A stretch of 62,587 bases of DNA, from the NCBI GenBank assembly GCA_040757655.1, contig JBFLWV010000010.1, positions 1 to 62,587 of the forward strand, given 5' to 3'. The notes under the pieces are model-generated. The model was not told the DNA's origin. It ran no database searches and saw nothing but the letters and a program-made list of their open reading frames with translations. The DNA comes from Patescibacteria group bacterium. GTDB lineage: Bacteria > Patescibacteriota > Patescibacteriia > 2-02-FULL-49-11. The first letter of the stretch is position 1; every line of letters starts with the position of its first letter. Both the position numbers and the translations under genes were made by a program. This document shows positions 14,555-52,676 of the stretch, one piece after another.

Positions 14555-14560
14555 CGAGCT

Positions 14561-14648: not shown

Positions 14649-14656
14649 CAAGATGT

Positions 14657-14734: not shown

Positions 14735-14753
14735 CCTGCCCGCCATCACTTAA

Positions 14754-14801: not shown

Positions 14802-14826
14802 CAAGCCCGCCCCGCATCAACACCAC

Positions 14827-18325: not shown

Positions 18326-18581
18326 ATTTATCGAAATATAACTGAAAATAATGTTTGATTTCGGGACGATAATTCTGTCTGCCAAACTTGTCTGGGGTTG
18401 ATTTCTCGCGAAAAATCCGCGCGGCTTTTTTAATGCCTAATATCTTTATCACCTTCTGCACATCGTCCCAATCACCGTAATTTAAAACTGCTTCCAGAAT
18501 AGCCGCATCTGAAAGCCCGTCATAATTCCTTGTGGACCATACCAGATATGGTCTCGTTTTGATAAATGTTTGCAGTGTCAT
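18309..18581 (-). CDS. Small protein upstream of and overlapping AbiEii; presumed cognate antitoxin
   Basis: 90 aa. Its stop overlaps the toxin start by 17 nt. No HTH recognised by eye. Confidence 0.45.
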   Translation of the reverse strand: MTLQTFIKTRPYLVWSTRNYDGLSDAAILEAVLNYGDWDDVQKVIKILGIKKAARIFREKSTPDKFGRQNYRPEIKHYFQLYFDKYDKNT

Positions 18582-19971: not shown

Positions 19972-20103
19972 CAAATCCAAAACCAAAAATCCAAACACTA
20001 AAATGATATCTGTTAATCCAAAATTACCGATGGCCTTTCAACGAAATCCTTTTTGAATTGTTCTCTATCATTTTGGATTTTGGGGTTTGGATTTTGGATT
20101 GGC
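19972..20103 (-). mobile_element. Internal-deletion (miniature) derivative of the four-helix-bundle palindromic element
   Basis: Both ends align at high identity with the ends of the element at 40515..40995. The left junction is ...aaaattaccgatggcctttca and the right junction is acgaaatcctttttgaattgttctctatcattttgg.... The roughly 330-bp gene body is missing. Confidence 0.8.
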
Positions 20104-20229
20104 ATAGGAACAGTGGAGGTCTGACATTTGAGTTAATAATTCATTCCATGTGAAATCGTGTAGTAATAATACAAGGGTGATAGAAGAAGAGAGGTTAGTA
20201 GGGCAGCTATTCCTACGGCGGCATCGGCC

Positions 20230-21732: not shown

Positions 21733-21740
21733 GGACAAGC

Positions 21741-21840
21741 TCAAAACTCAAATCTCAAAACGCAAAACCATAACTCAAAACCCATTAGCTTTGAGTTCTA
21801 AGATGTGGATTTGAGTTTTGAGTTCTGACATTTGAGTTAT
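21741..21840. repeat. Palindromic intergenic element of the caaaactcaaatctca type
   Basis: Left arm caaaactcaaatctcaaaacgcaaaaccataactcaaaa; right arm ctttgagttctaagatgtggatttgagttttgagttctgacatttgagttat. Confidence 0.8.
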
Positions 21841-24589: not shown

Positions 24590-24758
24590 TAAGATATAAA
24601 CTCAAAACTTAAATCTCAAAGCGCAAAACTATAACGCAAAACTAAAAAGCTTTGAGATTTGAGATATGGATTTGAGATTTGAGTTCTGACATTTGAGTTA
24701 TGCTGTTGCGGTTTGAAATTCTCGTTGGCATTTGAACTTTGATCTTTGGCATTTTCAA
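24590..24758. repeat. Compound palindromic intergenic simple-repeat element
   Basis: aaactcaaaacttaaatctcaaagcgcaaaactataacgcaaaac ... ctttgagatttgagatatggatttgagatttgagttctgacatttgagtt, plus a second arm pair. Confidence 0.75.
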
Positions 24759-26482: not shown

Positions 26483-26908
26483 TTAGAACTTCTTTTTGCC
26501 TTTCATGGTAAGGAGGCTCGCACTGATCATCTTGCTCAACTGCTCTGCCTCGTCTAATAACGGGGTGATTGTTTCCTTGGTAGATAACTTACTGTCGCGC
26601 AACAGACAAAACCAGTAGAGGGTCTCATTGCAGCTTTTAAGGGAAATTTCGTAATACTTAATGAACTCTCTTTTGGAACTTGAGGATTTCGCTTCTACGA
26701 GATTGGCGCCTATCGAGGTGGCTGATCGCAAGAGCTGGTCGGTGAAAATCGCGTAGATTCTGTCATGAGGAAAATCCTTAACTAACATGATGACATCCAA
26801 TGAAAACCGATAGGCACGGTACTTCACATGAGCTTTGAGATCTGAGCTGTGGTTTTGAGATTTGAGTTCTGACATTTGAGTTGATAATCTTGAATTGTTC
26901 TTTATCAT
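26483..26908 (-). CDS. Four-helix-bundle protein (23S rRNA IVS-protein family)
   Basis: Motifs QLLRSATSIGANLVEA and REFIKYYEISLKSCNETLYWF. Sits inside nested inverted repeat arms. The exact start is uncertain. Confidence 0.8.
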   Translation of the reverse strand: MIKNNSRLSTQMSELKSQNHSSDLKAHVKYRAYRFSLDVIMLVKDFPHDRIYAIFTDQLLRSATSIGANLVEAKSSSSKREFIKYYEISLKSCNETLYWFCLLRDSKLSTKETITPLLDEAEQLSKMISASLLTMKGKKKF

Positions 26909-26941
26909 TTTGCATTTTGGGATTTGGATTTTGGATTAGGG

Positions 26942-28873
26942 TTATTGCTGTTGTGTTGCTGTTTGCGCCCCTCCCGCAGCAGAGGGCGCCCCTTCCTGCT
27001 CCATCGTCTGGTCGAACTGGCGTTTGGCTTCCTCAATCTCCAAAAGCTGCCGAGGATCTGACGTGATGATCTGGTCCTCGGTGTAGGACGCAACCACCTT
27101 GATGGCCGCGTGCTTATTGCCCGCGAAGAAAATACCCTCTCCCACCCCGCTCTCGAGAAGCAGATACCGCTCCCCTTGCGTGAGGAGGAACACTTTTGCC
27201 ACCGCGTCAATGGCAGAAGGCGACTGGCGCAAGAGTATCTGGAGCCCGGAATTGTTCACAATCGCCTGCCCATAAGGGGATCCCAAGAAGTCATTCACAT
27301 CCTGCGTAATGGTGGAGAGGCCCAGGTAGTATTTGCGGCAGCGCTTTGCGAGGGCGTAGATGAATTTTGCAGAATCCTCGTGCTGCATAAGCCACCATGC
27401 CTCGTCAATGACAAGGATGCGTTTTTTAATGCTTGAGCGCACCACGTTCCAGATGAAATTGATGATGGTGTAGATTGCCATTGGACGGAGCTCGTCTTCC
27501 AAATCGCGCACCGAGAATACGACCAGCTGGTTATTGAGGTTAATGTTCGTGCGGTTATTGAGGAGCCCTGCAAACGTACCTTCAGTGTATTTTTTAAGTC
27601 GCAGCGCGATATCGTCGCCGCCTTCCATGCCGCGCAGGATATCCTCAAGGTCAGAGAGCACCGGCATTTCCGCGTGCGAAAGGTCCGAAGAGGGGGTAAT
27701 GTCTTTCTTGGCGTAGGTCTCAAGGATGGCGCGGTCGAGGAGCGAGTCCTCTTGGTGCGTGAGCTCCCCGATCATAATCCGGGTAAGCCCTTTGAGGGTA
27801 ATCACCGCGGAGCGGATGATATCGCCTGCCTTCGTGTCTTCCCCAACGGCACGGGGCAGGTCAAACGGGTTGATTTTGCTGTCAGAATTCAAGGATATGT
27901 TAATATAGGTGCCGCCCACCGCTTGCGCGAGGTATTGGTACTCGCGCTCCGGATCAATGATGATGACTTCCGTGCCGAACATGAGCGAGCGAAGGATCTC
28001 AAGCTTGATGGCATACGACTTGCCTGCGCCCGAGGTGGCAAACACCACCATGTTCGCATTTGGGAGCGAGAAACGGTCAAAAAGGACCAGGGAATTATTG
28101 TGGCGGTTGATGCCATAGAGCACCCCATGGTCGCTTGAGAGCTCCGCGGAAACAAAAGGGAATGACGATGCGGCAGGGGACGTATTCATGTTGAAACTTA
28201 CCCCCAGCTCATCAATGCCAAGGGGAAGCGTTGAATTGAACCCCTGCTCTGACTGCCAGGTGGCGCGCCGCGTAAACACGAGCTTTGATCCAATGAGGCT
28301 CTCCACCCGTTCAGTAAGCTTATTAAGCTCCTTAATGTCCGATGCGTACAAAGTAAGGTACAATGCACATTGGAAGAAGTGCTCTACCCCTTGAGTAATG
28401 TCATCACGCAGCTTTTCAATGTCTTGAAGGGCGGTCTCGCGTACCGGGTCGCGCGGAGCTCCTTTTTCCCGGTCTGCGGCAAGCTGCGCTTCCAGCACGC
28501 CTACTTTGTTCCTTAATTGCTTTAAGATGATTTCAGGATCAATGGGGTAAAAAAACATTCCCACGTCAAAGGTGGCGCTTAAGTCAATGATCGGCTCAAA
28601 CCATCCAACCGACACATAGCGAGGATAGGTGACCACGAACATCGTGCGCAGGAACATCCCCCCCAGTTCCAGATGGTCTGGCTGCACCCGAAGGGAAGAG
28701 GGCGCGATGAAGTCGCGGATGGACACTACCCCTTCCCGGTAGACTTTTTCCGCGCGCAGGAGCTCTTCTGAAGGAAGAGCGCCCTTTTCCACCCGCGCCG
28801 CCTCTCCTTGCGCTCTTGATACCGCTGAAGGAGCCTTTGGGGCGGACGATTTTTTCTTTAAGAAGTTGAACAT
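26942..28873 (-). CDS. virB4: VirB4/TrbE/PrgJ-family T4SS ATPase
   Basis: Walker A FATSGAGKSYAIK and Walker B ILVIDEAWWLM, with an N-terminal VirB4-type domain. The ATG at 28873 is preferred. Confidence 0.85.
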   Translation of the reverse strand: MFNFLKKKSSAPKAPSAVSRAQGEAARVEKGALPSEELLRAEKVYREGVVSIRDFIAPSSLRVQPDHLELGGMFLRTMFVVTYPRYVSVGWFEPIIDLSATFDVGMFFYPIDPEIILKQLRNKVGVLEAQLAADREKGAPRDPVRETALQDIEKLRDDITQGVEHFFQCALYLTLYASDIKELNKLTERVESLIGSKLVFTRRATWQSEQGFNSTLPLGIDELGVSFNMNTSPAASSFPFVSAELSSDHGVLYGINRHNNSLVLFDRFSLPNANMVVFATSGAGKSYAIKLEILRSLMFGTEVIIIDPEREYQYLAQAVGGTYINISLNSDSKINPFDLPRAVGEDTKAGDIIRSAVITLKGLTRIMIGELTHQEDSLLDRAILETYAKKDITPSSDLSHAEMPVLSDLEDILRGMEGGDDIALRLKKYTEGTFAGLLNNRTNINLNNQLVVFSVRDLEDELRPMAIYTIINFIWNVVRSSIKKRILVIDEAWWLMQHEDSAKFIYALAKRCRKYYLGLSTITQDVNDFLGSPYGQAIVNNSGLQILLRQSPSAIDAVAKVFLLTQGERYLLLESGVGEGIFFAGNKHAAIKVVASYTEDQIITSDPRQLLEIEEAKRQFDQTMEQEGAPSAAGGAQTATQQQ

Positions 28874-28887
28874 GAACTTTAATGTAA

Positions 28888-28972
28888 ACCCCAAAATCCA
28901 AAAACCAAAATGATAATCAAGAATTTATAAATTTTGGGCTATCATTTTGCATTTTGGGATTTGGATTTTAAA
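28888..28972. repeat. Miniature palindromic element (caaaatgata ... tatcattttg core)
   Basis: Left arm ccccaaaatccaaaaaccaaaatgataatc; right arm gctatcattttgcattttgggatttggatttt. Confidence 0.8.
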
Positions 28973-28981
28973 TTAGTACCG

Positions 28982-29668
28982 TTATTCTTCCACCTCCATC
29001 TTCTCCATCGCGGGCGCTCTTTCGCTCACCATCACCTCTGGATTGTAGGTCGCATAGAGAAGTTCTATAAGCGACTGGGTATCAAGCTCCACCGCATTCA
29101 AACCCATCGCCTGCAGGCCGCCTCGCAGGTGCGCCACATTCCTATCAAGTGATAAGCGGTACTGCCGGAATTTCTCTTCCTTCATTTTAATAAGTTTGGT
29201 AAGTGAGAATGTTTCGGAGAGTCTGGTAACGAGACTCTTCTGTTTATCAGAAACCGGATTATAGGGAACCGCGACATAGAACCGCTTCGACACAATATCG
29301 CCAAGGCTCACGAGCTCCGTAATGAATTGCCGGTAATCTGCCATCTGAATGCGGAGAAGGTCATTGGACTGCTCCCGTTCGCGCTGTTTCAGGTCGTCAA
29401 GGTACGTATCAATGAGAAAGCGGCGCGACTGAATGATGATTTGCACGGAAAAGGAAAGTGAATTGAGAAACGAAATGTATCCCTGGACCGTGGCCGCCTG
29501 CTCTTCGGGAGATTTGAGCGCAAAGTTCACTGAGGACACGAGGAGTACTGCGCGGAGGCTCCCATCCTTGAGGATAATCGTATTATCACGAACCTCCGCA
29601 ATCGGCAAATACCGCTGGGTTGATGGCGGATGAGTCTTTTTCTTACTGACGCCTGGTTGGATGGACAT
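28982..29668 (-). CDS. Hypothetical T4SS-associated protein resembling a stand-alone VirB4 N-terminal domain
   Basis: The segment LPIAEVRDNTIILKDGSLRAVLLVSSVNFALKSPEEQAATVQGY resembles the N-domain start of VirB4/TraC-type ATPases. It has no Walker motifs. The ATG at 29668 follows aaggaagg. Confidence 0.45.
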   Translation of the reverse strand: MSIQPGVSKKKTHPPSTQRYLPIAEVRDNTIILKDGSLRAVLLVSSVNFALKSPEEQAATVQGYISFLNSLSFSVQIIIQSRRFLIDTYLDDLKQREREQSNDLLRIQMADYRQFITELVSLGDIVSKRFYVAVPYNPVSDKQKSLVTRLSETFSLTKLIKMKEEKFRQYRLSLDRNVAHLRGGLQAMGLNAVELDTQSLIELLYATYNPEVMVSERAPAMEKMEVEE

Positions 29669-29682
29669 ACCTTCCTTAATGT

Positions 29683-29792
29683 AAAAACCAAAATCCAAAA
29701 ATCAAAATGATAGATGATAATCCAAAATATTTGAGGTTATCGTCCCGAAGGGACTCTTTCATTTTGGATTTTGGGATTTGCATTTTGCATTA
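29683..29792. repeat. Palindromic intergenic element with gtccc-gaa-gggac core
   Basis: Arms aaaaccaaaatccaaaaatcaaaatgata and tttcattttggattttgggatttgcattttgcatt. Core at 29742..29754. Confidence 0.8.
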
Positions 29793-30218
29793 TTTATCTT
29801 GCTCTGCCTCATACACCCCTCCCGTATCCACTTCAAGCGCAAGCTCCGCAAGACGGGCGTGACTAAAGCGTCGATGAGGCTGTTCAAGTACGGCAGATAC
29901 CTCCTCGCCCTGCATGGTCGCTTCAAGACTCTCCGCATCAGATTTGCTCCACACCCGCAATGAGGGTTTCATCCCGAGCTGAAACACAGAAAGAAGAAAA
30001 TGATGAAAATACCTTCCATTTACTTTATAAAAGCCAAAGAGCCCCACCAGTCCAAACGTGACGAGCGCAATGAGGATAAACAGAGAGATGTCAAACAGCT
30101 TGTAGCATATCACAAGGAAGAGGCCGGCCACGATCATTATGATGAACTGCCGCGTGGTAATCGGCCCTAAGATTTTATCTTCCACATCGATAAATTGTGG
30201 CACGACGAATTGATCCAT
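29790..30218 (-). CDS. PrgI-family (VirB3-like) small T4SS membrane protein
   Basis: The N-terminus FIDVEDKILGPITTRQFIIMIVAGLF followed by two TM helices is the PrgI-family pattern. The ATG at 30218 follows aaggaagg. Confidence 0.6.
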   Translation of the reverse strand: MDQFVVPQFIDVEDKILGPITTRQFIIMIVAGLFLVICYKLFDISLFILIALVTFGLVGLFGFYKVNGRYFHHFLLSVFQLGMKPSLRVWSKSDAESLEATMQGEEVSAVLEQPHRRFSHARLAELALEVDTGGVYEAEQDK

Positions 30219-30232
30219 ACCTTCCTTAATGT

Positions 30233-30345
30233 AAACTCCAAAATTCAAAACCCAAAATGATATATTATAATTTAAAATATTTGAGGGGATCGTCCCGACC
30301 GCGTCGGGACACCTTCATTTTGATTTTTAGGATTTGATTTTTGCA
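30233..30345. repeat. Palindromic intergenic element with gtcccgac-cgc-gtcgggac core
   Basis: Core at 30291..30309. Arms ctccaaaattcaaaacccaaaatgata and ccttcattttgatttttaggatttgatttttgcatt. Confidence 0.8.
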
Positions 30346-30351
30346 TTACTA

Positions 30352-31650
30352 CTAGTATGCCAGTTTTCGGTTGATGTCCGCAATAGCGTCAAATTCATCT
30401 TTGGTAAACACCGGATGCTTTTTCTTCACGTGCTCCTCGATCACGTGCGCCACGTCCATCCCTTTCTCGAGGCTTTCTGCGCCGACCACCAGATACAGCT
30501 GATGCAAGGGTGATGATTTCCAGGCGAGCACTCCCTCGTTTCTCTTCAAAAGCGATTCATCAGCGAGCAATTCTATTTTTTCCACCACCTTTGCGGCCAT
30601 CATGGGCGCCGTGGCGCCTAAACGACGGAAATCTTCAATCGTCATAGTTTTGAGTTCGTCAATTGGCCCCATCACCCTCCGAAAGGTGCGCACATCCGTG
30701 ACCGTCGAACGTAATTCTGCCGCTGGCGCCTTCGGAGGCGCGACAGGAGGAGAGACTTTGACTGGAGGCGTAACCGCTTGACGAGCCACTTCTGTTATGG
30801 CTTCTGGCTTCTGGCTTCTGGCTTCTGGCTTATAGGATGGATGCACAAACGGCCGCGGTTCCTTGACCACAAGTGACGGCACCTCAAATGGCTTTGCAGG
30901 AGCCGCAGCAACACGAGCAATCGCAGGTCCTCCCCCTTCCTTCTGTGGGACACGCAAAGGCGCGGGAGCTTCTTCTTCTGGTTTCACTGGAGTCACTTTC
31001 ACTCCTCGCACTTCATCTTCAAACGCGCCTCGTCGCTCCTCTATAAACTGGAGAAGCGTCTGCGCGGCTGCATTATCCATATTCACACCTCCCAATTCCC
31101 GCGGCCGCATCAACACCTCTTTTGTTTCCATGAGATCCCTTACGTCTCTGAGTCGAGAAACAATGACCCGCACAAGCCGAGGACGAATCTCTGGGTCAAC
31201 CGGGAGGTTTGCTGTCTTCAAAATTTCATCTGCCTTCTTATTCACGAGCTCGTGGATCTTCTCAATGCGCTCTTTATCGCCCGCCTGACGGTACCCGTCA
31301 ATTTCCTCCTCATCGCCCACATCTACATAATAACGGGCAACGGGCTTCAGAGCCTGCCTAGCGGCCACAGGCGGAGATGCGCGTGCGGGCACGTCTGCAC
31401 GCGCGGGAGGCGTGGTCGGCGATTTCACCGGTGCGCCAACCGGGAGAGGAGCACGTTCGAGACCTATGTGCTTTACGCGATCATTATGAGATGCGCGCGA
31501 CGCATCCCAATCCTCCAGTTTGCCGTTCTTGAGCACCTTGAAACGCCCGTCCGCATCACGGACGACCAGCTCATTCATTGGATTGTGCACCACAGAATCT
31601 GCCATACCGTTACTATGTGTTAAAACTGGTTGCAGTGAACATTTTATCAT
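30352..31650 (-). CDS. Hypothetical Pro/Ala-rich protein containing a 7-bp tandem repeat
   Basis: 432 aa. Its start overlaps the upstream stop in an ATGA arrangement (31647-31650). No motif recognised. Confidence 0.6.
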   Translation of the reverse strand: MIKCSLQPVLTHSNGMADSVVHNPMNELVVRDADGRFKVLKNGKLEDWDASRASHNDRVKHIGLERAPLPVGAPVKSPTTPPARADVPARASPPVAARQALKPVARYYVDVGDEEEIDGYRQAGDKERIEKIHELVNKKADEILKTANLPVDPEIRPRLVRVIVSRLRDVRDLMETKEVLMRPRELGGVNMDNAAAQTLLQFIEERRGAFEDEVRGVKVTPVKPEEEAPAPLRVPQKEGGGPAIARVAAAPAKPFEVPSLVVKEPRPFVHPSYKPEARSQKPEAITEVARQAVTPPVKVSPPVAPPKAPAAELRSTVTDVRTFRRVMGPIDELKTMTIEDFRRLGATAPMMAAKVVEKIELLADESLLKRNEGVLAWKSSPLHQLYLVVGAESLEKGMDVAHVIEEHVKKKHPVFTKDEFDAIADINRKLAY

Positions 31651-32420
31651 GTTTTGAACTTCTCACGAATCCGTGCCTGCTCAACCTGGTACCATTTCTG
31701 CTCGTCATCTAATTTCTTTTCCAGCGATTCAACCAATTTCCTCATCAACCAGTCGGTTTTATTGATGAGTTCCAGGAATATCTCGCATGTCAAGTCTTCC
31801 GGTTGAATCTTGGCTAAAGGAGAATAAAGGACAGTTAAAGGACGATACGTGAAATTATTATCCTTTATCATCCTATATCTTCCTTTATCACCCTGTAACG
31901 CGCGATGAAATTCCCCAAGGTCAGTGCCGATGCTCTCAAAACTCGATCCTGGTCTAGATCTTAAAAACCCATCCTCGGTCATCTCGCGCACATCGCCTTT
32001 CACTTCTTCCAAACTGCCTTGACTGTAACTGATGAAATCGAGATACTCCCGCGTCGTCGCTCGCTTGTAGCCCTCCTCAATGTTCCGCACCACGCTCCTG
32101 GCAGCGTCATCAACCTGTGCTTTCCTGCGATATTCAGATTTCGGCAACGCATCAGTCGTGAGACGAACCAAATAGCGCAGCAATACAGCGTTCGACCACT
32201 GCACCAGGTAGCGATATCCTTCCGGATCCTGCCATACCCGTGATCGCTGTTGCGGACGCTCTGGCTGCGATAATTCCCATAGGGTTTTCATCCGCATGAA
32301 GGCTCCTACTTCGCTAGAATTCAATCCCGCCAAATCACAATGAGGAAAATCATTTGGTGCTTGTGACCAATCGGGATTATGGTCATCAAATTTTGCTATA
32401 AACTTTTTCACGTCCGACAT
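31647..32420 (-). CDS. Extended four-helix-bundle-family protein (257 aa)
   Basis: The core DDAARSVVRNIEEGYKRATTREYLDFISYSQGSLEEVKGDV matches the family motif (aNIaEG...f..fl.iA.gSl.E), with extra N- and C-terminal regions. Confidence 0.65.
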   Translation of the reverse strand: MSDVKKFIAKFDDHNPDWSQAPNDFPHCDLAGLNSSEVGAFMRMKTLWELSQPERPQQRSRVWQDPEGYRYLVQWSNAVLLRYLVRLTTDALPKSEYRRKAQVDDAARSVVRNIEEGYKRATTREYLDFISYSQGSLEEVKGDVREMTEDGFLRSRPGSSFESIGTDLGEFHRALQGDKGRYRMIKDNNFTYRPLTVLYSPLAKIQPEDLTCEIFLELINKTDWLMRKLVESLEKKLDDEQKWYQVEQARIREKFKT

Positions 32421-32483
32421 ATCGAGCCTTTATTTACGTTCAACCATCCTTTATCCTCCTCTTTCTTCCTTTATATCATCCAA

Positions 32484-32558
32484 CCACCTGAACTCACCCG
32501 TCTCTAAATCTCCATATGCTAAATGAGAATATTCAAGTTCGCCTGCCTTGCGGCATTC
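32484..32558 (-). pseudogene. Copy 4 (most diverged) of the 3' coding end of the 474-aa gene
   Basis: Translates ECRKAGELEYSHLAYGDLETGEFRW, versus ECRKAGDEEYAHLAYGDLETGEFKW in the intact gene. Confidence 0.7.
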
Positions 32559-32817
32559 ACCCCGTTAGAGAAAGGAAACGCTTCAAGCGATTTTTAAGAT
32601 ACCGCTTCCCCATCCCAGTCTTCAGATATTTTTCCCGAACTCGCGCATCATGGTCATTAATGCAAGCTTCATAGTAAATCAACTGAAATGGACCCCTGCC
32701 TGTTGTCGATGTTACCTTTCCTTCATTGTGCTCCCTGAAGCGTTTCCGTAGATCGCCCGAAGAACCTGTATACCATTTCCTATCCTTTAAACTTTGCAAA
32801 ACGTACGTATAGACCAT
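32557..32817 (-). CDS. GIY-YIG nuclease superfamily protein (stand-alone, 86 aa)
   Basis: VYTYVL...KWYTGSSGDLRKRFREHNEG is the GIY-(10)-YTG...R..EH signature. Confidence 0.85.
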   Translation of the reverse strand: MVYTYVLQSLKDRKWYTGSSGDLRKRFREHNEGKVTSTTGRGPFQLIYYEACINDHDARVREKYLKTGMGKRYLKNRLKRFLSLTG

Positions 32818-32943
32818 AAACTTACTTCTCTAGCCCGTTAAAACTATTCCTCTTAATGCTCTCTACGCGACAATGTCATAAATAATATATGCCAGATATA
32901 TCTCGTGACTCAGCTCAACTTTTAACGGGCTCTAACGGGGTAA

Positions 32944-33045
32944 ATTCCACTTAAACGTCCCTGTCTCCAAATCCCCCCGCCTAAATCTCTGCAAGAAAAT
33001 TGGGCGGGCGTCGGTTAATTTTTAACGTTCTATCAAAATATGTTT
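32944..33045 (-). pseudogene. Copy 3 of the 3' coding end of the 474-aa gene (tail variant beta)
   Basis: Near-identical to 33693..33795. Translates KHILIER*KLTDARPIFLQRFRRGDLETGTFKWN. Confidence 0.75.
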
Positions 33046-33069
33046 CGGATTATCCACTGTGCCCGTACC

Positions 33070-33165
33070 TTGACAAAAAATTCATACGTGCTATACTTTT
33101 TTTGCCTTGCTAAGGCAAGGCGGAACCAAATTTTCCTCGGGTAACACCGAGGAACTTTTTATTTC
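33070..33165 (+). ncRNA. Predicted ~60-nt transcript (promoter + two hairpins + terminator) convergent on NYN gene 1
   Basis: TTGACA (33070-33075)-16 nt-TATACT (33092-33097). Then hairpin gccttgc-taag-gcaaggc, then ttcctcgg-gtaaca-ccgaggaa followed by ctttttattt. Confidence 0.55.
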
Positions 33166-33677
33166 ATCAACTCAAATTCATTCCGCAGTTTCTTTAAATC
33201 AATAAACTTCGCCTGTTGCACGAGATCCAGTGCGACACTCCCTTTCGTGGACATGACTACGCATCGTTTGCCATGCGCTTTAAGAAATTTGAGTAAAAAT
33301 GCAAAATCGCTGTCACCGGACAATAAAATGAATGACTGATAATCGAGAAGCGTATGAACCGCGTCAATGGTAAGCTCAACATCAAGATTGCCCTTATGGA
33401 ATCCTCCTTCATCGCGCAACTGATCCCTGATAAACTTCACCTTCTTTGTACGAACAGTATACCCTATCAAATCGAGAAAATCGAGAAAACGTCTCTGCTT
33501 ATCCGATGTGGGGTCATACGCGGTATAGAAATAACAGCGATGAAGTTCGGCTTCGCGTGCGAAGTAAACAAGCAACTTTTGAAAATCAATGCGCCAACCA
33601 AGCCTCTTTTGGGAATGATAAATATTAGAGGCATCAATGCATATTATTGTCTTTCCATGAACAAAGGTGGAAATCAT
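33159..33677 (-). CDS. NYN-domain (LabA/DUF88, PIN-like) putative RNase, copy 1
   Basis: Motifs IICIDASNIYH and ILLSGDSDFAFLLKFLKAHGKRCVVMS. The ATG at 33677 lies 11 nt after the stop of tail copy 2. Confidence 0.85.
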   Translation of the reverse strand: MISTFVHGKTIICIDASNIYHSQKRLGWRIDFQKLLVYFAREAELHRCYFYTAYDPTSDKQRRFLDFLDLIGYTVRTKKVKFIRDQLRDEGGFHKGNLDVELTIDAVHTLLDYQSFILLSGDSDFAFLLKFLKAHGKRCVVMSTKGSVALDLVQQAKFIDLKKLRNEFELMK

Positions 33678-33688
33678 AAATACGTTTA

Positions 33689-33952
33689 TTACGCATTCCA
33701 CTTAAACGTCCCGGTCTCCAAATCCCCCCGCCTAAATCTCTGCAAGAAAATTGGGCGGGCGTCGGTTAATTTTTAACGTTCTATCAAAATATGTTTCAAA
33801 AACGCTAAGAAATACTTCGGTGCAGCAGGATCTTTCAAAAATTCCTGCACGGGCGTTGCATGCAACGCCCCTACATTATCCCCTGATTCCTGATTCATAA
33901 TTCTTGATTCCCGCTTCTCAAGTTGATGTCTCCAATACTTCACGAATCGTTC
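33689..33952 (-). pseudogene. Copy 2 of the 3' coding end of the 474-aa gene (constant part + in-frame TAA + tail variant beta)
   Basis: ERFVKYWRHQLEKRESRIMNQESGDNVGALHATPVQEFLKDPAAPKYFLAFLKHILIER*KLTDARPIFLQRFRRGDLETGTFKWNA*. The first roughly 170 bp is close to identical to 35770..35945. Confidence 0.8.
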
Positions 33953-33983
33953 TGGTCGGCTATCCATACACGGATGTCCCCAC

Positions 33984-34068
33984 TTGACAAACATTTACAA
34001 TACTATATACTGTAAATGTGATTTGACTCTGGAGTGCCTTGTAAAAGGCAGCTCCAGATTCTTTTTTA
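33984..34068 (+). ncRNA. Predicted ~50-nt transcript convergent on NYN gene 2
   Basis: TTGACA (33984-33989)-16 nt-TATACT (34006-34011). Then hairpin ctggagtgcc-ttgtaaaa-ggcagctccag followed by attctttttt. Confidence 0.55.
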
Positions 34069-34575
34069 TCTCGCAATTTCCGTCTTAAGTTTCCGAAAAT
34101 CGACAAACTTCGCAACTTCCAACAACTCTCGCGCTATATGACCGCGGGTGGACATCACGATCACTCTTTTCCCTTTTTCCTTCACGCGCTCCAATACCGG
34201 CGCGAAATCACTGTCGCCAGAGACAAGAATAGCCGTATCATAACGATCTGCGAGCTCCATCATCTCTAACGCGAGTTCAATATCAAGGCTTCCCTTCCGT
34301 TTGCTCGTGCCATCACTTGAATTGATTTCCTTAATCACTTTTGTGCGTACGATGTAGCCGTTGATCTCCAGCATGTCCAGAAACTTGCGCTCGCCAACCT
34401 TGTTGTCATTGAATGCTGTGTACGCGAAGCACTTCACCGAAACACCGCACTCATGCTTAAAATACGCCATTAATTTCTCATACCCAACGCTCCATCCGAG
34501 CGTACGTCTCGTGAAAAAGACGTTCGCCACATCAATGAATACGTATACTCGCCCTTGAATGTATTTTGAAATCAT
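34066..34575 (-). CDS. NYN-domain (LabA/DUF88, PIN-like) putative RNase, copy 2
   Basis: Motifs VFIDVANVFF and ILVSGDSDFAPVLERVKEKGKRVIVMS. The ATG at 34575 lies 11 nt after the TGA of tail copy 1. Confidence 0.85.
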   Translation of the reverse strand: MISKYIQGRVYVFIDVANVFFTRRTLGWSVGYEKLMAYFKHECGVSVKCFAYTAFNDNKVGERKFLDMLEINGYIVRTKVIKEINSSDGTSKRKGSLDIELALEMMELADRYDTAILVSGDSDFAPVLERVKEKGKRVIVMSTRGHIARELLEVAKFVDFRKLKTEIAR

Positions 34576-34586
34576 ATCATTTACAT

Positions 34587-34742
34587 TCACGCATTCCACC
34601 TGAATTCTCCCGTTTCCAGATCGCCGTATGCCAAGTGTGCGTACTCCTCATCTCCGGCTTTGCGGCATTCATTGCTTAAGGTCAAAACCGCCAGTTTCGC
34701 GCTTTCTTCAGTTAATTTTAAACGATCAATCGGGATATACCT
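34587..34742 (-). pseudogene. Copy 1 of the 3' coding end of the 474-aa gene (tail variant alpha, last 47 codons)
   Basis: Translates IDRLKLTEESAKLAVLTLSNECRKAGDEEYAHLAYGDLETGEFRWNA*. Near-identical to 35619..35765. Confidence 0.85.
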
Positions 34743-34756
34743 CAAGATTATTAACA

Positions 34757-34846
34757 TTGACAAAAAAAATCATAATGCTATGCTGTCAATGTACCTCCCT
34801 TATCTAAGGCTCTCTCGAGTACAGGTAACGGGGGTGTTTTTATTAT
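34757..34846 (+). ncRNA. Predicted ~55-nt transcript convergent on the DUF3800 gene
   Basis: TTGACA (34757-34762)-16 nt-TATGCT (34779-34784). Then a structured segment ending in gggggtgtttttatt, about 10 nt before the DUF3800 stop. Confidence 0.45.
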
Positions 34847-34855
34847 GAACAGTTC

Positions 34856-35467
34856 TTATAAGTGCAATAATATCTTCTCTTTATTCATGATCATTTCGTG
34901 ATAGTGGGGATCGCCCCGCTCATACTCTCTAAAAATACTCCCCGCAATCATATCTGCTATCTGGATCATCGCATTGTTCCGAGAACGTTGCTGCCTGATT
35001 TTTCTAACCACATTCTTGCTCATATACTGTTTAAGCACCGCATTGAATTCTCGCCGATGGATTTGAGCTGACGCTTCGTCAATGACGAGGACAGATTCAA
35101 CTATCGGCGGATCGTTATCATAAAACAATCTTCTCACTGCTTCGCAGTAGAGCTGATGGGGATGGAACTTCAGTGCTGGCGCGGTAAGTTCACGTTTATC
35201 AACAACGACTGCCTTATAGCGGATTAACCGCTCTGATAACGTACGCAAAAACGCTTCGCGAAATGTACGCTTGCATCGTGAAAACTTAAACTCAAAATCC
35301 TGCGCCAATCGCAATTCCAACCTTAACCTTTCCATTGTAATCTCAATCTCCTTCGCCTCGCATCCAAGAAACACCGCTGCCACTACAAAAAATCTCGAGG
35401 ATCCGCGTTCAAACTTGAAACCACAATCACTTGCTTCGTCTATCCAGAGATATGATATTGTCTCCAT
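34856..35467 (-). CDS. DUF3800-family protein
   Basis: N-terminus YLWIDEASDCGFKFERGSSRFFVVAAVF and C-terminal IQIADMIAGSI are typical DUF3800 motifs. The ATG at 35467 is preferred. Confidence 0.7.
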   Translation of the reverse strand: METISYLWIDEASDCGFKFERGSSRFFVVAAVFLGCEAKEIEITMERLRLELRLAQDFEFKFSRCKRTFREAFLRTLSERLIRYKAVVVDKRELTAPALKFHPHQLYCEAVRRLFYDNDPPIVESVLVIDEASAQIHRREFNAVLKQYMSKNVVRKIRQQRSRNNAMIQIADMIAGSIFREYERGDPHYHEMIMNKEKILLHL

Positions 35468-35618
35468 AATTATAGCACAATAATCTATCTCATATCCTAG
35501 CTGCAATTTCCTTAAGTCATACAAGCATCACTCACTCGCGATCGCGAGTCTTTGATTCCTTTCGGATTTAAGCCCTTCAGACACATGTCTGCGTAAGTCC
35601 GCGCAAGTCCGCGTTTAC

Positions 35619-37043
35619 TCACGCATTCCATTTGAATTCCCCAGTCTCCAGATCGCCGTATGCCAAGTGTGCGTACTCCTCATCTCCGGCTTTGCGGCAT
35701 TCATTGCTTAAGGTCAAAACCGCCAGTTTCGCGCTTTCTTCTGTTAATTTTAAACGATCAATCAAAACATGTTTCAAAAACGCTAAGAAATACTTCGGTG
35801 CGGCAGGATCTTTCAAAAATTCCTGTACGGGCGTTGCATGCAACGCCCCTACATTATCCCCTGATTCCTGATTCATAATTCTTGATTCCCGCTTCTCAAG
35901 TTGATGTTTCCAATACTTCACAAACCTTTCCGACTTGCCAAATGACTGTTTGAGAGACCCACGCCGGGCCAATCGCCAAAGACAAGTCAATACTCCGACT
36001 ATATCACCTTTGTTCACGGCGCTGTAAAACCCATTCAGCTCTTCCTCTTCGTTCGCTCCACTCCCGCCTGCTTGTTCCAACTGCGCCAACGCCGGAGCGA
36101 TCACGGTATCCAAAGTCCATTGCTCATACTTCTTTATCATCTTATTCACCATAAAGTCCCTCTTCGCTTCCCCGCCCAAATTTTCAACAATATCCGCCGG
36201 CGCCTCCTCTCCCAGCGCATGCAAAATCACTTCCCGCATCTCCTGCAATCCTTTCTTAATTTTTACTTCATCAATCTCTTTGATCGGCTCAAATTTCCCT
36301 TCCCGAATTGTTCCCTTTATATCAGACTCATCAATAGGTATCGCATCCTCCATTCCTTCTAGAGTAAGAGACGATTTGAGTAAATGTCCATAAAGGGTAA
36401 TAAGCGTACGTAATTGTTCCTGTTGCTTAGTAGGTAAACGTCGTGCCTGTTCATCGCTGGATAGAAAACTATTGACATCAAGCGCTGTATATATTTTTTT
36501 CCCTAATTTCACAACCACCCGTTGTAACCACTGTCCAATCGTTAAAGCACTATTCATCAACACTCTCTCTCCTAGCAACGGCGCTATCTGACCAAACGGC
36601 TCCTGATTCTTCTCCAATGCTTCCCGTAAAACAACTTTCAGTCGATCACGATCATCTAGAAGCGGGTAAGTGAGAAACCAAGCTTTAACTTTCTCCCAAA
36701 TATCAAACCCCTCGCTCTCAAGCGCCTGAACTAGATGATGCGCAAAGAGATCAATCGCTTCAGTGTCACTCTTCACGGTATGAAATACCGTCCATCGCAA
36801 AATTACCATCATGCGTTGCAACGCGTGATACTGCTCGGGATAACGAATGGCGAACTCAGGAGATGCGTGCAAAAATGCATTTAAATCGTTGAGTAACGCC
36901 GCCGATTCTGCCACATATCCGAAAAACATCATTTCCTCTGCACGTCGCTTCAAACCGTCCAAAAATTCGACGTCACCAAGTTTATCCCCTACTTGCGTAA
37001 GAAGATCCGTTAGAGAAACTGATTTAAGAAACGCTGTACTCAT
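35619..37043 (-). CDS. Hypothetical 474-aa protein whose 3' end is the recurrent cassette boundary
   Basis: Long ORF immediately downstream of the VirB6-like gene. No motif recognised. Confidence 0.7.
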   Translation of the reverse strand: MSTAFLKSVSLTDLLTQVGDKLGDVEFLDGLKRRAEEMMFFGYVAESAALLNDLNAFLHASPEFAIRYPEQYHALQRMMVILRWTVFHTVKSDTEAIDLFAHHLVQALESEGFDIWEKVKAWFLTYPLLDDRDRLKVVLREALEKNQEPFGQIAPLLGERVLMNSALTIGQWLQRVVVKLGKKIYTALDVNSFLSSDEQARRLPTKQQEQLRTLITLYGHLLKSSLTLEGMEDAIPIDESDIKGTIREGKFEPIKEIDEVKIKKGLQEMREVILHALGEEAPADIVENLGGEAKRDFMVNKMIKKYEQWTLDTVIAPALAQLEQAGGSGANEEEELNGFYSAVNKGDIVGVLTCLWRLARRGSLKQSFGKSERFVKYWKHQLEKRESRIMNQESGDNVGALHATPVQEFLKDPAAPKYFLAFLKHVLIDRLKLTEESAKLAVLTLSNECRKAGDEEYAHLAYGDLETGEFKWNA

Positions 37044-40514: not shown

Positions 40515-41050
40515 CATAACAAATCCAAATCTAATCCAAATCCCAAAATCCAAATACCAAAATGATATCTGTGAATCCAAAATTATCGACGGCCTTTCAT
40601 GGTAACGATACTTGCCCCAATAATTCTGGCAAACTCATTAGCCTCGCGAGAGAAGGCTTCAACTTCGTCTCGATGTGAGACGCTCACTGTTTCCTGGAGC
40701 ACCATGAGCCAGTAGATCGTCTCATTGGCTGATTTAAGTGCAATCTCGAAAAAATGAATGTAATCTCTTTTTGAACCTGAACCTTTCGCCTCTACGACGT
40801 TCGCACCAATTGAACCTCCACTGCGGATTACTTGATCGACGATTGACCACAGCAGTCTATTCTCACCTTTAATCCTCTCCCCAAGCTTGATGATATGCAC
40901 GGTGAATTGGATCAACCTTCTGATGAAATCCTTTTTGAATTGTTCTCTATCATTTTGGGATTTGGGATTTGGGTTTTGGATTGGCATAGAGGCTGTGGGG
41001 ATTTGGAATTTTATTTGACATTGGGATTTGGAAATTGGGATTTAATGCGT
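40515..41050 (-). mobile_element. Full-length palindromic element carrying a four-helix-bundle gene
   Basis: Left arm aaatccaaatctaatccaaatcccaaaatccaaataccaaaatgata; right arm tatcattttgggatttgggatttgggttttggatt, plus a second arm set. A miniature derivative lies at 19972..20103. Confidence 0.7.
40583..40987 (-). CDS. Four-helix-bundle protein (23S rRNA IVS-protein family)
   Basis: Motifs QVIRSGGSIGANVVEAKGSGSKRDYIHFFEIALKSANETIYW. The N-terminus MPIQNPNPKSQND is encoded by the repeat arm. Confidence 0.85.
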   Translation of the reverse strand: MPIQNPNPKSQNDREQFKKDFIRRLIQFTVHIIKLGERIKGENRLLWSIVDQVIRSGGSIGANVVEAKGSGSKRDYIHFFEIALKSANETIYWLMVLQETVSVSHRDEVEAFSREANEFARIIGASIVTMKGRR

Positions 41051-52141: not shown

Positions 52142-52272
52142 AAAATCTTTATATCACAATGAGGAGAATGACGAGGAGAGAGAATAATTTACGACGAGAA
52201 GAAAAATGCACCATATCCTATAAATCCAAATCCCAAAAACCAAAATCCAAAATGATAATAAATAATGTAGAA

Positions 52273-52650: not shown

Positions 52651-52676
52651 TTTGGGATTTGGATTTTGGATTAGGG

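Follow-up and report, generated by a model that had tools for sequence, protein, structure and literature searches.

Why should the end of one gene of a secretion operon be repeated several times, with small nuclease-type genes lying between the copies? In the window analysed here (the whole 62.6-kb stretch of DNA, from a Uhrbacteria-like bacterium of a candidate phylum), the last 25-105 codons of a 474-aa gene occur in four further copies downstream, on the same strand. The genes between the tails are, in order, DUF3800, NYN, NYN and GIY-YIG, after which comes a four-helix-bundle (23S_rRNA_IVP) gene, all of them on the minus strand.

The repeated gene end

35619..37043, minus strand: 474-aa gene of the T4SS-like operon (ORF), with the functional end T0 (...GEFKWNA*)
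35619..35930, minus strand: T0, functional gene-end segment repeated downstream (repeat search)
34587..34731, minus strand: T1, orphan tail covering codons ~419-474 and closed by a TGA of its own (self-BLASTN)
33689..33965, minus strand: T2, orphan tail, codons ~369-431 alpha-type (94% identical to the gene), then a degenerate "beta" end
32944..33046, minus strand: T3, orphan tail of the beta type that matches the 3' part of T2 at 99% identity and stops where the GIY-YIG element starts
32451..32559, minus strand: T4, original resident gene end, codons ~447-472 plus a native extension LDDIKEERGG* (collinear with related locus L007)
31647..32420, minus strand: 257-aa four-helix-bundle gene (23S_rRNA_IVP / TIGR02436; Pfam 6.8e-13)
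30352..31650, minus strand: 432-aa gene of the operon, forming the conserved flank on the right of the hotspot

A preliminary description of this DNA had reported the recurrence, and self-alignment bears it out with significant similarity throughout (E 4e-82 to 9e-8, 74-99% identity). The repeat search by self-BLASTN paired 35930-35740 with 33952-33762 (191 nt, 94%, E 4e-82), 35763-35614 with 34731-34580 (152 nt, 95%, E 3e-64), 33797-33695 with 33046-32944 (103 nt, 99%, E 6e-48) and 34671-34596 with 32559-32484 (76 nt, 74%, E 9e-8). The last pair is identical at 21 of 25 residues at the protein level (tblastn E 3e-11). The stop codons are also as described, including the TAA in place of a TTA codon in T2 (33775-33773), and the array does interrupt the T4SS-like operon. 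The fourth copy is a diverged tail, as had been noted, but it does not end at the W codon: it reads on into a native C-terminal extension, with its stop at 32451. No more copies of tail or cargo were found elsewhere in the window.

In the orphan tails of the window and its relatives, the 3' end is always kept (codon 472-474) while the 5' start varies from 369 to 458, with truncation at more than 15 different codon positions. The repeats are 5'-truncated coding sequences of 75-265 nt without a common core junction. Of the earlier proposal of repeated site-specific insertion, repeated recombination at the conserved GDLxTGEF(K/R)W-coding end is supported, and the site-specific part is not.

The 474-aa protein has a hypervariable body and a C-terminal block of ~70 aa that is conserved in the alignment, and only 3 homolog clusters were found for it among 5.8 billion proteins. 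The preliminary description had likened the array to Rhs/CDI loci, in which displaced C-terminal modules of a polymorphic toxin accumulate with their partner genes. Serial displacement of a 3' end, with one small gene per copy, is formally similar to that known pattern (PMC3482391). However, no part of the protein is better conserved than the segment repeated here, which is orthologous in all copies, and there is no variable toxin tip. Domain searches of the 474-aa protein returned no toxin, Rhs or filamentous haemagglutinin domain, and the downstream genes are nuclease-fold genes with their own small RNAs and are not immunity-like. The defining features of such arrays are absent, and we give this explanation next to no weight.

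Origin of the tail copies

Positions 32559-31657 of the window are collinear, at 75% identity, with 11188-12097 of L007, where an intact gene end is followed by the IVP gene. The native-type extension of T4 matches WMDAIKEK of L007. Judging from this collinearity, the gene end that originally resided here is the distal copy T4, a point that the preliminary description missed. T0 and T4 are separated by 13 synonymous and 4 non-synonymous codon differences, T0 and T1 by 4 synonymous and 2 non-synonymous ones (K>R, and L>P at the truncation boundary). This synonymous bias shows that the orphans were working gene ends while they evolved in separate lineages, in agreement with the earlier suggestion that each incoming cassette brings a copy of its target.

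With its in-frame stop and a net deletion of 48 nt, the beta tail is a degenerate orphan, and none of the related loci has an equivalent of its specific middle part. Since T2 and T3 are 99% identical, stop codon and deletions included, they require duplication or gene conversion within the array and not to import of a functional end. The notion of two tail alleles in circulation has to be given up, as beta is a decayed orphan unique to the window.

Between the window and L007, the IVP gene, the 432-aa gene, PrgI, TraC and the N-terminal part of an 1150-aa gene are 67-88% identical, whereas the body of the 474-aa gene is 37% identical and the C-terminal part of the 1150-aa gene 26%. At its stop, the IVP gene overlaps with the start of the operon gene that follows. 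The IVP gene is itself variable among relatives, being present in L007, L005 and L020 and absent from L003, L001, L015 and L017.

Cargo modules and antisense small RNAs

34732..35613, minus strand: DUF3800 cassette; ORF 34856-35467 from ATG, or from a TTG start at 35524 (Pfam DUF3800, 1.8e-12)
34757..34850, plus strand: DUF3800 antisense promoter TTGACA-16-TATGCT (34757-34784) and candidate small RNA (~34791-34846), convergent (fold z = -2.0)
34066..34575, minus strand: NYN-a gene, 169 aa (Pfam NYN, 7.5e-32)
33984..34075, plus strand: NYN-a antisense promoter TTGACA-16-TATACT (33984-34011) and predicted small RNA (~34018-34070), convergent (fold z = -5.1)
33159..33677, minus strand: NYN-b gene, 172 aa (Pfam NYN, 1.2e-26)
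33070..33165, plus strand: NYN-b antisense promoter TTGACA-16-TATACT (33070-33097) and predicted two-hairpin small RNA (~33104-33164), convergent (fold z = -6.6)

Pfam confirms the cargo identities proposed earlier (DUF3800, NYN twice, GIY-YIG and 23S_rRNA_IVP). Both NYN ATGs (34575 and 33677) lie, as had been observed, exactly 11 nt past the stop of the preceding tail, T1 for NYN-a and T2 for NYN-b. The DUF3800 cassette sits between 152-nt direct tail repeats that are 95% identical. NYN-b is 40% identical to NYN-a. The NYN-a block (34610-34000) is common to L006, L015 and L017 at 77%, the NYN-b block (33727-33069) to L005, L010 and L012 at 79%.

Each DUF3800 or NYN cassette also carries, on the opposite strand, a near-consensus promoter and a predicted terminator-ended small RNA, a new finding absent from the preliminary description. 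An exact TTGACA with at least 10 of 12 matches occurs at 4 sites in the whole window on both strands (1.5 expected), and three of these are the cassette promoters, one per cassette. L015 has 8 such promoters, again one per cassette; none was found on that strand in L007, a 21-kb locus with an empty site. The right ends of the cassettes are sharp and lie just past the -35 hexamer. Rfam DUF3800-II, the family of one small-RNA type in relatives, gives matches of 55-62 bits (gathering threshold 43.2) in L015, L005 and L001, and these begin at the very nucleotide predicted as the transcription start. The NYN-a small RNA is laid out as a conserved 5' single strand followed by a terminator hairpin, and RNAs of this type are kept beside NYN genes in other CPR genomes, with compensatory changes in 5 of 13 stem pairs. 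L005 has an element homologous to the NYN-b small RNA after its own NYN-b. The DUF3800 small RNA is the weakest of the three candidates.

By analogy with RNA antitoxins, we infer that the small RNA may restrain or partner the protein. It is possible, though we consider it less than an even chance, that the locus is a host-selected defence or addiction island, in which anti-phage or toxin/RNA-antitoxin modules persist because they benefit the host or resist loss, and the swapping of such modules leaves the tail fossils behind as by-products. The PADLOC matches are NYN (PDLC01154, 7.5e-16), HEC-09, and DUF3800 to candidate family PDC-M04A (1.4e-8), yet the families involved are candidates, and neither the GIY-YIG nor the IVP gene has a match. 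A strong, constitutive predicted antisense promoter opposite a nuclease-fold gene resembles convergent RNA-antitoxin systems, and an AbiEii toxin gene lies nearby (17705-18385). On the other hand, conservation of the NYN-a family across CPR phyla (58-67% identity) leaves room for a housekeeping role. As a proposal about function, it can stand beside the recombination model set out below.

The GIY-YIG element

32556..32945, minus strand: GIY-YIG element, ~390 bp; 86-aa ORF 32557-32817 (Pfam GIY-YIG, 2.8e-14)

Perfect 11-nt terminal inverted repeats, CCCCGTTAGAG (32940-32930 and 32570-32560), flank the element on both sides; the preliminary description did not include them, and they are a new finding. 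The right repeat codes for the final codons SLTG*. These repeats recur, with covarying substitutions, in Doudnabacteria, in a MAG labelled Planctomycetes by one source and in a Dehalococcoidia MAG. More than 4000 protein clusters were found for the protein, with 74-86% identity across several phyla. On these sequence features the element is clearly mobile, and in the window as in L002 it lies within or beside tail sequence.

Such mobility speaks for the intronless homing that had been suggested earlier, by which cargo nucleases would cut tails that lack a cassette and repair would insert the cassette while regenerating the target, the array resulting from successive homing events. Presence/absence polymorphism of cassettes among related loci fits this too, as do the nuclease folds of the cargo (GIY-YIG and NYN by Pfam; DUF3800 is predicted to be RNase H-like, PMC10910872). 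A close formal parallel exists in fungal mitochondria, where C-terminal duplications of atp6 and cob are flanked by free-standing GIY-YIG or LAGLIDADG ORFs (PMC6279837). However, the NYN and small-RNA module is found in other CPR genomes in unrelated contexts, where the upstream gene end is not duplicated, and so homing by the cargo is not supported. NYN domains are generally considered RNases. The GIY-YIG protein is an 86-aa catalytic domain without a DNA-binding domain and scores 29 bits against a group I intron endonuclease model, under the 56-bit cutoff. The flanking tail positions of the element differ (473/447 in the window, after the stop/~466 in L002), and truncation points are spread over ~90 codons. 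We therefore regard homing as unlikely.

Related loci

The preliminary description pointed to related genomes as the place to look for empty sites and different cassette orders, and both were found. Related Uhrbacteria loci differ in the presence, absence and order of cassettes, and cassettes vary even between near-identical strains. Two loci are empty sites: in L007 the 474-aa homolog is followed by 43 nt, the IVP gene and the 432-aa gene homolog; in L003, 8 nt separate the 474-aa and 432-aa homologs. L015 and L006 carry at least 9 tails over 6 kb, L005 and L010 5-6, L017 5, and L002 and L009 1-2. Breakpoints between related arrays fall in tails: L019 and L015 are 100% identical from tail codon 450 on and different upstream, L015 carries an additional two-cassette block of 1.6 kb between ~85-nt near-identical tail repeats, and the block common to L015 and L017 ends at a tail stop. 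The last tail of the arrays, beside the native neighbour, is of native type (W, then MD... or LDD...); the internal ones end in WNA* or WG[STV]*.

An assembly artefact, with strain variants collapsed or chimerically joined at a polymorphic locus, has a very small probability. The locus is heterogeneous in populations, many related contigs begin or finish within arrays, and the 474-aa protein of the window is known from one contig only. Nevertheless, the repeats are short (76-191 nt) and mutually diverged (74-99%), with unique genes between them, and T4 runs seamlessly into the native downstream gene. The same architecture was also assembled independently in several samples (L005 and L010 are identical at 100%, and L015, L006, L014 and L016 at 99-99.6%).

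Single-gene cassettes in the same orientation, each bounded by a repeat and differing in order between strains, also recall an integron-like system, where a site-specific recombinase would insert circular cassettes and the tails would act as attC-like sites. The near-identical direct repeats (T2/T3, 99%; the 85-nt pair of L015) are what a single crossover with a circle would leave. However, no integrase, transposase or other recombinase was found among the 20 neighbouring ORFs scanned, and the repeats lack the common core junction expected of such sites. The same cargo is moreover followed by differently truncated tails in different lineages, starting at 369 or 408 after NYN-a and at 425 or 375 after NYN-b. 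This explanation is largely refuted and highly improbable.

Proposed recombinational accretion at a conserved gene end

The best model, which we consider somewhat more probable than not, is an array built by recombinational accretion, anchored in the conserved 3' tail of the 474-aa gene at the edge of a hypervariable segment of secretion genes, and not by site-specific insertion or as an integron or toxin array. The hypervariable segment comprises the body of the 474-aa gene and two thirds of the 1150-aa gene, on its C-terminal side. To the right of this segment, good conservation begins with the tail, which makes the tail the natural crossover point in exchange between strains. Small self-contained cassettes would gather directly after it, DUF3800, NYN-a and NYN-b probably being two-gene modules of a nuclease-fold gene ~10 nt past the tail stop and a convergent small RNA. 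Each import would bring the functional gene end of a related strain together with its cassette or cassettes. On the right it would join within the resident tail, through an illegitimate event or through crossover involving an orphan tail that the donor already carried. The 474-aa gene would thereby remain intact, and the earlier end would stay downstream as a 5'-truncated fossil. Once between two tail copies, a cassette could be moved, duplicated or deleted by ordinary homologous recombination. The conserved 3' end of a secretion-operon gene would thus serve as a recombination landing pad for nuclease-type genes.

The pathway is presumably RecA-dependent, through natural transformation or another transfer route, and the first junction between cassette and tail would need an illegitimate event. 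No consistent microhomology was found at the cassette-tail junctions, the only case being a repeated 7-nt ACAGGGG at the L002 GIY-YIG element. Purely random recombination would not predict the sharp right ends of the cassettes; selection to keep the small-RNA promoter intact, or some dedicated mechanism, may account for them. In L001, it is the 5' end of the 432-aa gene, rather than the tail, that is repeated between cassettes.

Repeated gene ends in a T4SS-like operon

Between 30 and 41 kb of the window every gene lies on the minus strand (ORF listing). The 3' end of a 474-aa gene of this segment has four copies downstream, retrieved by self-BLASTN and a repeat finder, so that the serial repeats claimed in the preliminary description are real. 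We call the functional gene end, or tail, T0 and the downstream copies T1 to T4, of which T2 and T3 hold a second version, the beta end. Pfam agrees with the cargo order previously described (DUF3800, NYN, NYN, GIY-YIG and then a four-helix-bundle gene of the 23S_rRNA_IVP family), and the 11 nt said to separate each NYN start codon from a preceding tail stop codon are exact for both genes. A window-wide search gave no tail or cargo copies beyond the array, which is a real and well-delimited feature.

Genes and tail copies of the array (for tails: paired segments, length, identity)
37043..35619, minus, 474-aa gene ending in T0
34732..35613, minus, DUF3800 cassette
T1: 35763-35614 with 34731-34580, 152 nt, 95%
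34066..34575, minus, NYN-a
T2, 5' part: 35930-35740 with 33952-33762, 191 nt, 94%
33159..33677, minus, NYN-b
T2, 3' part, with T3: 33797-33695 with 33046-32944, 103 nt, 99%
32556..32945, minus, GIY-YIG element
T4: 34671-34596 with 32559-32484, 76 nt, 74%; 21/25 amino acids identical
31647..32420, minus, 257-aa 23S_rRNA_IVP gene (IVP gene)

As had been proposed, the array interrupts a T4SS-like operon. Around it lie PrgI-like, TraC/VirB4-like and T4SS pilin genes and the gene of a 1150-aa membrane protein (g1150), while housekeeping genes (LeuRS, TsaD, KsgA, ClpB, RecG) flank the operon. The 474-aa protein is rare, with three other clusters among 5.8 billion proteins, and its final ~70 residues are by far its best-conserved part. 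Structure-database sequence searches with this protein and with DUF3800 gave no match below E = 0.08. A 30-nt near-perfect palindrome (TGTAGGGGCGTTGCATGCAACGCCCGTACA) is found in frame in the 474-aa gene (35824-35853) and again in T2 (33846-33875); it falls in a 22-codon insertion of the gene, and homologs lack that insertion.

Empty and occupied sites in related genomes

We recovered 20 related loci and mapped them by tblastn; the nearest named relatives of the window are Candidatus Uhrbacteria metagenome-assembled genomes. Two of the loci are empty sites. In L007, a 71-kb contig, the IVP gene begins 43 nt past the 474-aa homolog and precedes the homolog of the 432-aa operon gene (g432); in L003, only 8 nt separate the 474-aa homolog from that of g432. 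Other loci are occupied: the L015/L006 array has at least nine tail copies across 6 kb, L005/L010 five to six, L017 five, and L002 and L009 one or two. The cargo of these relatives includes NYN-a and NYN-b genes 82-89% identical to those of the window, several DUF3800 types, a GIY-YIG gene 89% identical (L002) and three families of 148, 143 and 135 aa without a Pfam match. For the 148-aa family, kinship with DUF3800 was considered and rejected (hhalign probability 2.7%).

Near-identical strains differ by whole cassettes. L019 equals L015 at 100% from tail codon 450 onwards and differs upstream, and L015 holds an additional two-cassette block between ~85-nt near-identical tail repeats. Presence/absence and order variation, expected from the preliminary description, is thus seen among relatives. 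An assembly artefact, by which the repeats would come from misjoined reads, is unlikely: the same arrays were assembled independently in relatives (L005 and L010, 100% identical; L015 and L006, 99.6%), which speaks against mis-assembly as a general explanation.

Identity of the window to the empty site L007
g1150, N-terminal third: 76%
g1150, C-terminal part: 26%
474-aa gene, body: 37%
IVP gene: 77.5%
g432: 67%
PrgI: 88%
TraC: 87.5%

In this profile, the tail is where conserved sequence first resumes on the right side of a hypervariable operon segment, which makes it a natural homologous anchor for allele exchange.

A mirror image of the array was found in L001: there, the gene downstream, the g432 homolog, has its 5' start repeated three times between cassettes. 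In this mirror array (4172-6851), the first ~25 codons of the g432 homolog recur together with the region upstream of them at 4326-4429, 5108-5226, 5777-5852 and 6733-6851, with cargo remnants in between, including a degraded GIY-YIG start and a pair of DUF3800 gene and DUF3800-II RNA. The mirror image favours a property of the locus, with recombination anchored in either conserved flank, and speaks against a tail-specific enzyme.

Origin of the tails and growth of the array

The tail copies that bound the cassettes are 5'-truncated coding sequences of 75-265 nt with variable start points. All orphan tails reach codon 472-474, and their truncation codons include 369, 375, 402-409, 417-422, 425, 429, 440-447 and 450-458; therefore there is no fixed crossover site. 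The "site-specific" insertion suggested previously does not agree with truncation points that vary between codons 369 and 458. An integron-like system would build arrays of same-orientation single-gene cassettes with a repeated element between them and strain-variable content, as is observed here. It fails, however, because no integrase, transposase or other recombinase turned up when the array genes and 20 neighbouring ORFs, several of them short or without an assignment, were scanned with Pfam and NCBIfam, and there is neither an attC structure nor a fixed site; moreover, the repeats here are truncated coding sequence and the DUF3800/NYN cassettes have their own antisense promoter.

The preliminary description had also noted a resemblance to the orphan C-terminal modules of polymorphic-toxin (Rhs/CDI) loci, in which variable toxin tips are followed by cognate immunity genes. 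This reading fails as well. The repeated piece is the conserved end and not a variable tip, the tails are all orthologous, the genes after them are DUF3800, NYN and GIY-YIG rather than cognate immunity genes, and no toxin, Rhs or haemagglutinin domains were found in the array proteins by Pfam and NCBIfam.

Native tails end in W plus an extension that varies, for example MDAIKEK* in L007 and LDDIKEERGG* in T4 of the window. Such endings are confined to tails that abut the native downstream gene; array-internal tails terminate in WNA* or WG[STV]*. Window 32559-31657 (T4, spacer and IVP gene) is collinear with the intact gene end and IVP gene of L007. T4 is therefore the original resident end, and the stretch from T4 to the gene body is added DNA. 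Between T0 and T4, 13 codon differences are synonymous and four non-synonymous; between T0 and T1, four are synonymous, to which a K>R change and one change at the boundary are added; between the gene and the 5' part of T2, six are synonymous and five non-synonymous, the TAA being counted among the latter. These differences show purifying selection. The orphans thus evolved as working gene ends in other lineages and were stranded later; the incoming DNA supplied a gene end of its own.

The beta end of T2 and T3 contains an in-frame stop and a 48-nt net deletion, and T2 and T3 are 99% identical along the entire T3. The preliminary description took it for a second tail allele in circulation; that proposal was rejected, because the beta-specific middle part matches nothing in the 20 related loci compared. 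The beta end is a decayed orphan, duplicated or gene-converted inside this array.

Serial accretion by recombination anchored in the tail is the reading with the best support. An incoming segment from a related strain would bring the 3' part of the gene, its tail and one or more cassettes. On its left side it would enter by homologous crossover, and on its right side it would join inside the resident tail, either illegitimately, as in homology-facilitated illegitimate recombination (PMC3240628), or by crossing over with an orphan tail that the donor already carried. As only products with an intact gene survive, the old end would persist as a truncated fossil. Once a cassette stands between two tails, ordinary recombination could insert, duplicate or delete it. 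Serial accretion accounts for the variable truncation points, the distal native end, the synonymous divergence of the tails, the near-identical repeats flanking some cassettes, the mirror-image array of L001 and the many contigs that break inside arrays. It also accounts for the similarity breakpoints between arrays, which fall in the tails, consistent with homologous recombination. It leaves unexplained the origin of the first illegitimate junctions and the right ends of the cassettes, which are sharp, just past the -35 hexamer of the antisense promoter. A constant promoter-to-tail junction for each cassette type, as from a Campbell-type circle with a fixed tail fragment, was considered and rejected; in different lineages the tail after NYN-a starts at codon 369 or 408, and that after NYN-b at codon 425 or 375.

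Some tails contain or adjoin other small sequences. In L015 (~5250-5400), an orphan tail is interrupted at ...EES|AKL... by an element of ~155 nt whose terminal inverted repeats are CACCCCGCAC / GTGCGGGG, and L012 (~1999-2025) has a 27-nt palindrome alone at the same spot, either a footprint or a minimal form of that element. In L005, at 1234-1290 and 2900-2975, each of two orphan tails that begin at codon 445 has a short hairpin (GGGCAGAA GATT TTCTGCCC) immediately before it; the first instance is a cargo-less mini-cassette between two tails.

Nuclease-fold genes with predicted antisense small RNAs

Every DUF3800/NYN cassette contains, between the cargo stop codon and the next tail, a predicted near-consensus sigma-70-type promoter on the opposite strand, which was overlooked in the preliminary description.

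Predicted promoters of the window cassettes
34757-34784, plus, TTGACA-16-TATGCT, DUF3800 cassette
33984-34011, plus, TTGACA-16-TATACT, NYN-a cassette
33070-33097, plus, TTGACA-16-TATACT, NYN-b cassette

These are three of the four such sites (exact TTGACA and at least 10/12 matches) on both strands of the 62.6-kb window, where 1.5 are expected. L015 has eight, one for each cassette, and none occurs on that strand of a 21-kb empty-site locus. Downstream of each promoter there is a structured sequence of 55-120 nt that closes with a hairpin and a T-run shortly before the cargo stop codon. Each DUF3800/NYN ORF has, directly on its 3' side, a convergent predicted promoter and a predicted RNA with a terminator. 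A sense-strand promoter, TTGTCA-16-GATAAT, occurs at one window junction only; as a general junction promoter it was rejected, not being general in other loci (by eye).

DUF3800 genes, whose domain has a predicted RNase H-like fold (PMC10910872), are associated with at least eleven unrelated RNA motifs, DUF3800-I to -XI, structured and terminator-ended, for which neither function nor genomic behaviour was found (Weinberg et al. 2017, PMC5737381; Rfam RF02961). The cassettes of L015, L005 and L001 bear bona fide DUF3800-II RNA (RF02961, 55-62 bits against a gathering score of 43.2), and the matches begin exactly at the start site predicted from the promoter. Unlike the published motifs, the gene-RNA pair is here a discrete movable cassette with a consensus promoter, and the layout reaches NYN genes and the 148-aa family. 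No Rfam family matched in the window array, including its own DUF3800 candidate RNA, a 60-nt sequence with promoter and terminator and a weak fold (z -2.0).

[quoted passage not shown] Relatives in unrelated contexts have the same hairpin downstream, with a near-consensus antisense promoter in two of the three loci examined, and the small-RNA stem shows compensatory changes in 5/13 pairs. No gene-end duplication was seen around the NYN modules in those contexts; the tail duplication is therefore a feature of this locus and not of the modules. The DUF3800/NYN cargo thus consists of self-contained modules, each a nuclease-fold gene with a convergent predicted small RNA. From this layout and matches to PADLOC candidate families we infer an RNA-antitoxin-like or defence role. 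Unlike in type I toxin-antitoxin systems, the cargo encodes soluble nuclease-fold proteins of 169-203 aa and not small hydrophobic peptides. A function as guide RNAs was considered and rejected, as the three window small RNAs have no complementarity of 9 nt or more to the tail.

Two variants of the layout were observed elsewhere. A ~76-aa ORF with two predicted membrane helices, found only in L001 (5496-5726, minus), L002 (3771-4001, minus) and L015 (near 6390, minus), lies on the opposite strand under the same type of consensus promoter, in place of the small RNA. Two more conserved small-RNA types follow the 148-aa family in L002, L005, L009, L011, L015 and L017; they are long three-helix hairpins starting with GATGATYGAG... 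or GTGATCGGGT... (for example L015 6033-6100 and L009 ~4830-4920), with no Rfam match and one compensatory pair in seven sequences.

The GIY-YIG element

The 86-aa GIY-YIG ORF is enclosed by perfect 11-nt inverted repeats CCCCGTTAGAG (window 32940-32930 and 32570-32560, and likewise in L002), the right one coding for the C-terminal SLTG*. The protein, a catalytic domain only (TIGR01453 score of 29 bits against a cutoff of 56), has more than 4000 relatives, and identity across Patescibacteria, Omnitrophota, Planctomycetes, Dehalococcoidia and Flavobacteriales is 74-86%. Three other contexts retain the repeats, with substitutions matching on both sides, for instance ATCCCGTTAGAGACA in a Doudnabacteria genome. 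This pattern marks a tiny, widely travelling element, and our literature search found no description of GIY-YIG elements with inverted repeats. The Ssn proteins, small GIY-YIG single-strand DNA nucleases tied to natural transformation, are flanked by hairpin repeats called SRM (PMC11893778). They share with this element a small single-domain gene and a cognate repeat on both sides, but here a single inverted repeat, split into two halves, encloses the ORF, in place of local hairpins. Ssn-type SRM flanks were rejected, the published degenerate SRM pattern giving 0 matches in the window.

Among the loci, the GIY-YIG cassette occurs in the window and L002 only. Its flanks in the window are non-contiguous tail positions (T3 codon 473 on the left, T4 codon 447 on the right) and differ from those in L002; a target-site duplication is lacking in the window, and a 7-nt repeat occurs in L002 only. 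These data bear on homing, in which the cargo itself would direct its insertion, and which the preliminary description had invoked by likening the array to intronless homing. The likeness to free-standing endonucleases of the T4 seg/mob type holds for presence/absence of cassettes between conserved genes (L007 and L003 empty, others occupied) and breaks down at the insertion point, which is not fixed, as the differing GIY-YIG flanks and the scattered orphan starts indicate. Homing is possible for the GIY-YIG element and unsupported for the NYN and DUF3800 modules.

In L034 (2001-2661), from the Dehalococcoidia MAG GCA_041645415.1, the GIY-YIG element is followed after 26 nt by a 124-aa 23S_rRNA_IVP gene, parallel to the order GIY-YIG, T4, IVP gene in the window. 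These selfish-type genes may travel together.

Parallels and significance

The array is a case of gene-end regeneration with serial displacement, a kind of event already known, and its closest parallels are C-terminal duplications in fungal mitochondria (PMC6279837) and the minimal mobile elements of Neisseria (PMC3082526). In the fungal atp6 and cob genes, partial C-terminal duplications accompany free-standing homing-endonuclease ORFs: the functional 3' end is kept, a truncated copy lies downstream, and small GIY-YIG/LAGLIDADG ORFs stand between (PMC6279837). Both systems thus have a truncated end copy downstream, small ORFs in between and a replacement end from incoming DNA. The present array, in contrast, is on a bacterial chromosome, with up to nine serial copies and variable truncation points, and most of its cargo consists of NYN/DUF3800 genes with antisense small RNAs and not of recognisable homing endonucleases. 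Minimal mobile elements occupy a site between conserved genes, with different cassettes in different strains of a DNA-exchanging population, and are exchanged by homologous recombination in the conserved flanks without a dedicated recombinase. Here, too, conserved genes flank cassettes that differ from strain to strain, but minimal mobile elements are simple replacements and leave no series of truncated end copies of a flanking gene. Homology-facilitated illegitimate recombination, an experimental phenomenon that combines a one-sided homologous anchor with an illegitimate join and usually deletes resident DNA (PMC3240628), would be the simplest route to a new junction of cassette and truncated tail, although the surviving products here keep the resident end as a duplicate. 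Our literature search found no description of such an arrangement in Patescibacteria.

A more far-reaching proposal goes beyond a passive crossover point: the conserved gene end would be kept up as a landing pad that needs no integrase, at which CPR bacteria collect and shuffle nuclease/small-RNA modules. Orphan tails would be portable homology arms, functionally equivalent to attC; the modules or the GIY-YIG element would actively stimulate recombination at the tail; the DUF3800, NYN and 148-aa families would form a new class of RNA-controlled toxin/defence cassettes; and candidate-phyla bacteria would draw on a phylum-wide module pool. As a whole, we consider this proposal rather unlikely.

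The locus documents how gene-cassette arrays are built and reshuffled without an integrase in tiny-genome bacteria, with natural intermediates that comprise empty sites, single insertions, nine-cassette arrays and a mirror version at the neighbouring gene's 5' end. Two additions raise its value, the movable nuclease and small-RNA cassettes and the inverted-repeat-bounded GIY-YIG element. The long-unexplained DUF3800-RNA motifs gain a genomic behaviour, as discrete movable two-gene cassettes with a consensus promoter, and this layout extends to the NYN family across the CPR. The 86-aa GIY-YIG gene with its covarying inverted repeats may be one of the smallest mobile elements to have travelled widely. 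In practice, the locus can be used as a strain-level hypervariable marker, and it probably gives rise to assembly breaks in genome bins of Uhrbacteria.

Other elements in the window

An AbiEii-type nucleotidyltransferase toxin gene (type IV toxin-antitoxin / abortive infection; 17705-18385) adjoins the T4SS pilin genes on their downstream side. Besides the 257-aa gene, small 23S_rRNA_IVP genes occur at 40533-40982, 52223-52672 and 26483-26948, all intergenic; two lie within the operon. Pfam confirmed the ORFs of 134 and 141 aa, and the 125-aa ORF (52273-52650) is assigned solely because its DNA is 71% similar to the 134-aa copy. Inverted repeats of ~35 nt (40533-40567 / 40982-40948) bound the copy at 40533-40982, and an ORF-less derivative at 19974-20107 consists merely of the two ends of the element. 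These copies look like small mobile, IVS-like elements. MITE-like intergenic repeat families of 50-130 nt, each way round, are found between genes of the operon and close to housekeeping genes (for example 21737-21840, 24598-24701, 54282-54380, 28880-28976, 29666-29792, 30216-30348 and 55093-55195). Three tRNA genes, two of them with long variable arms, lie at 13670-14898 and are unrelated to the array.
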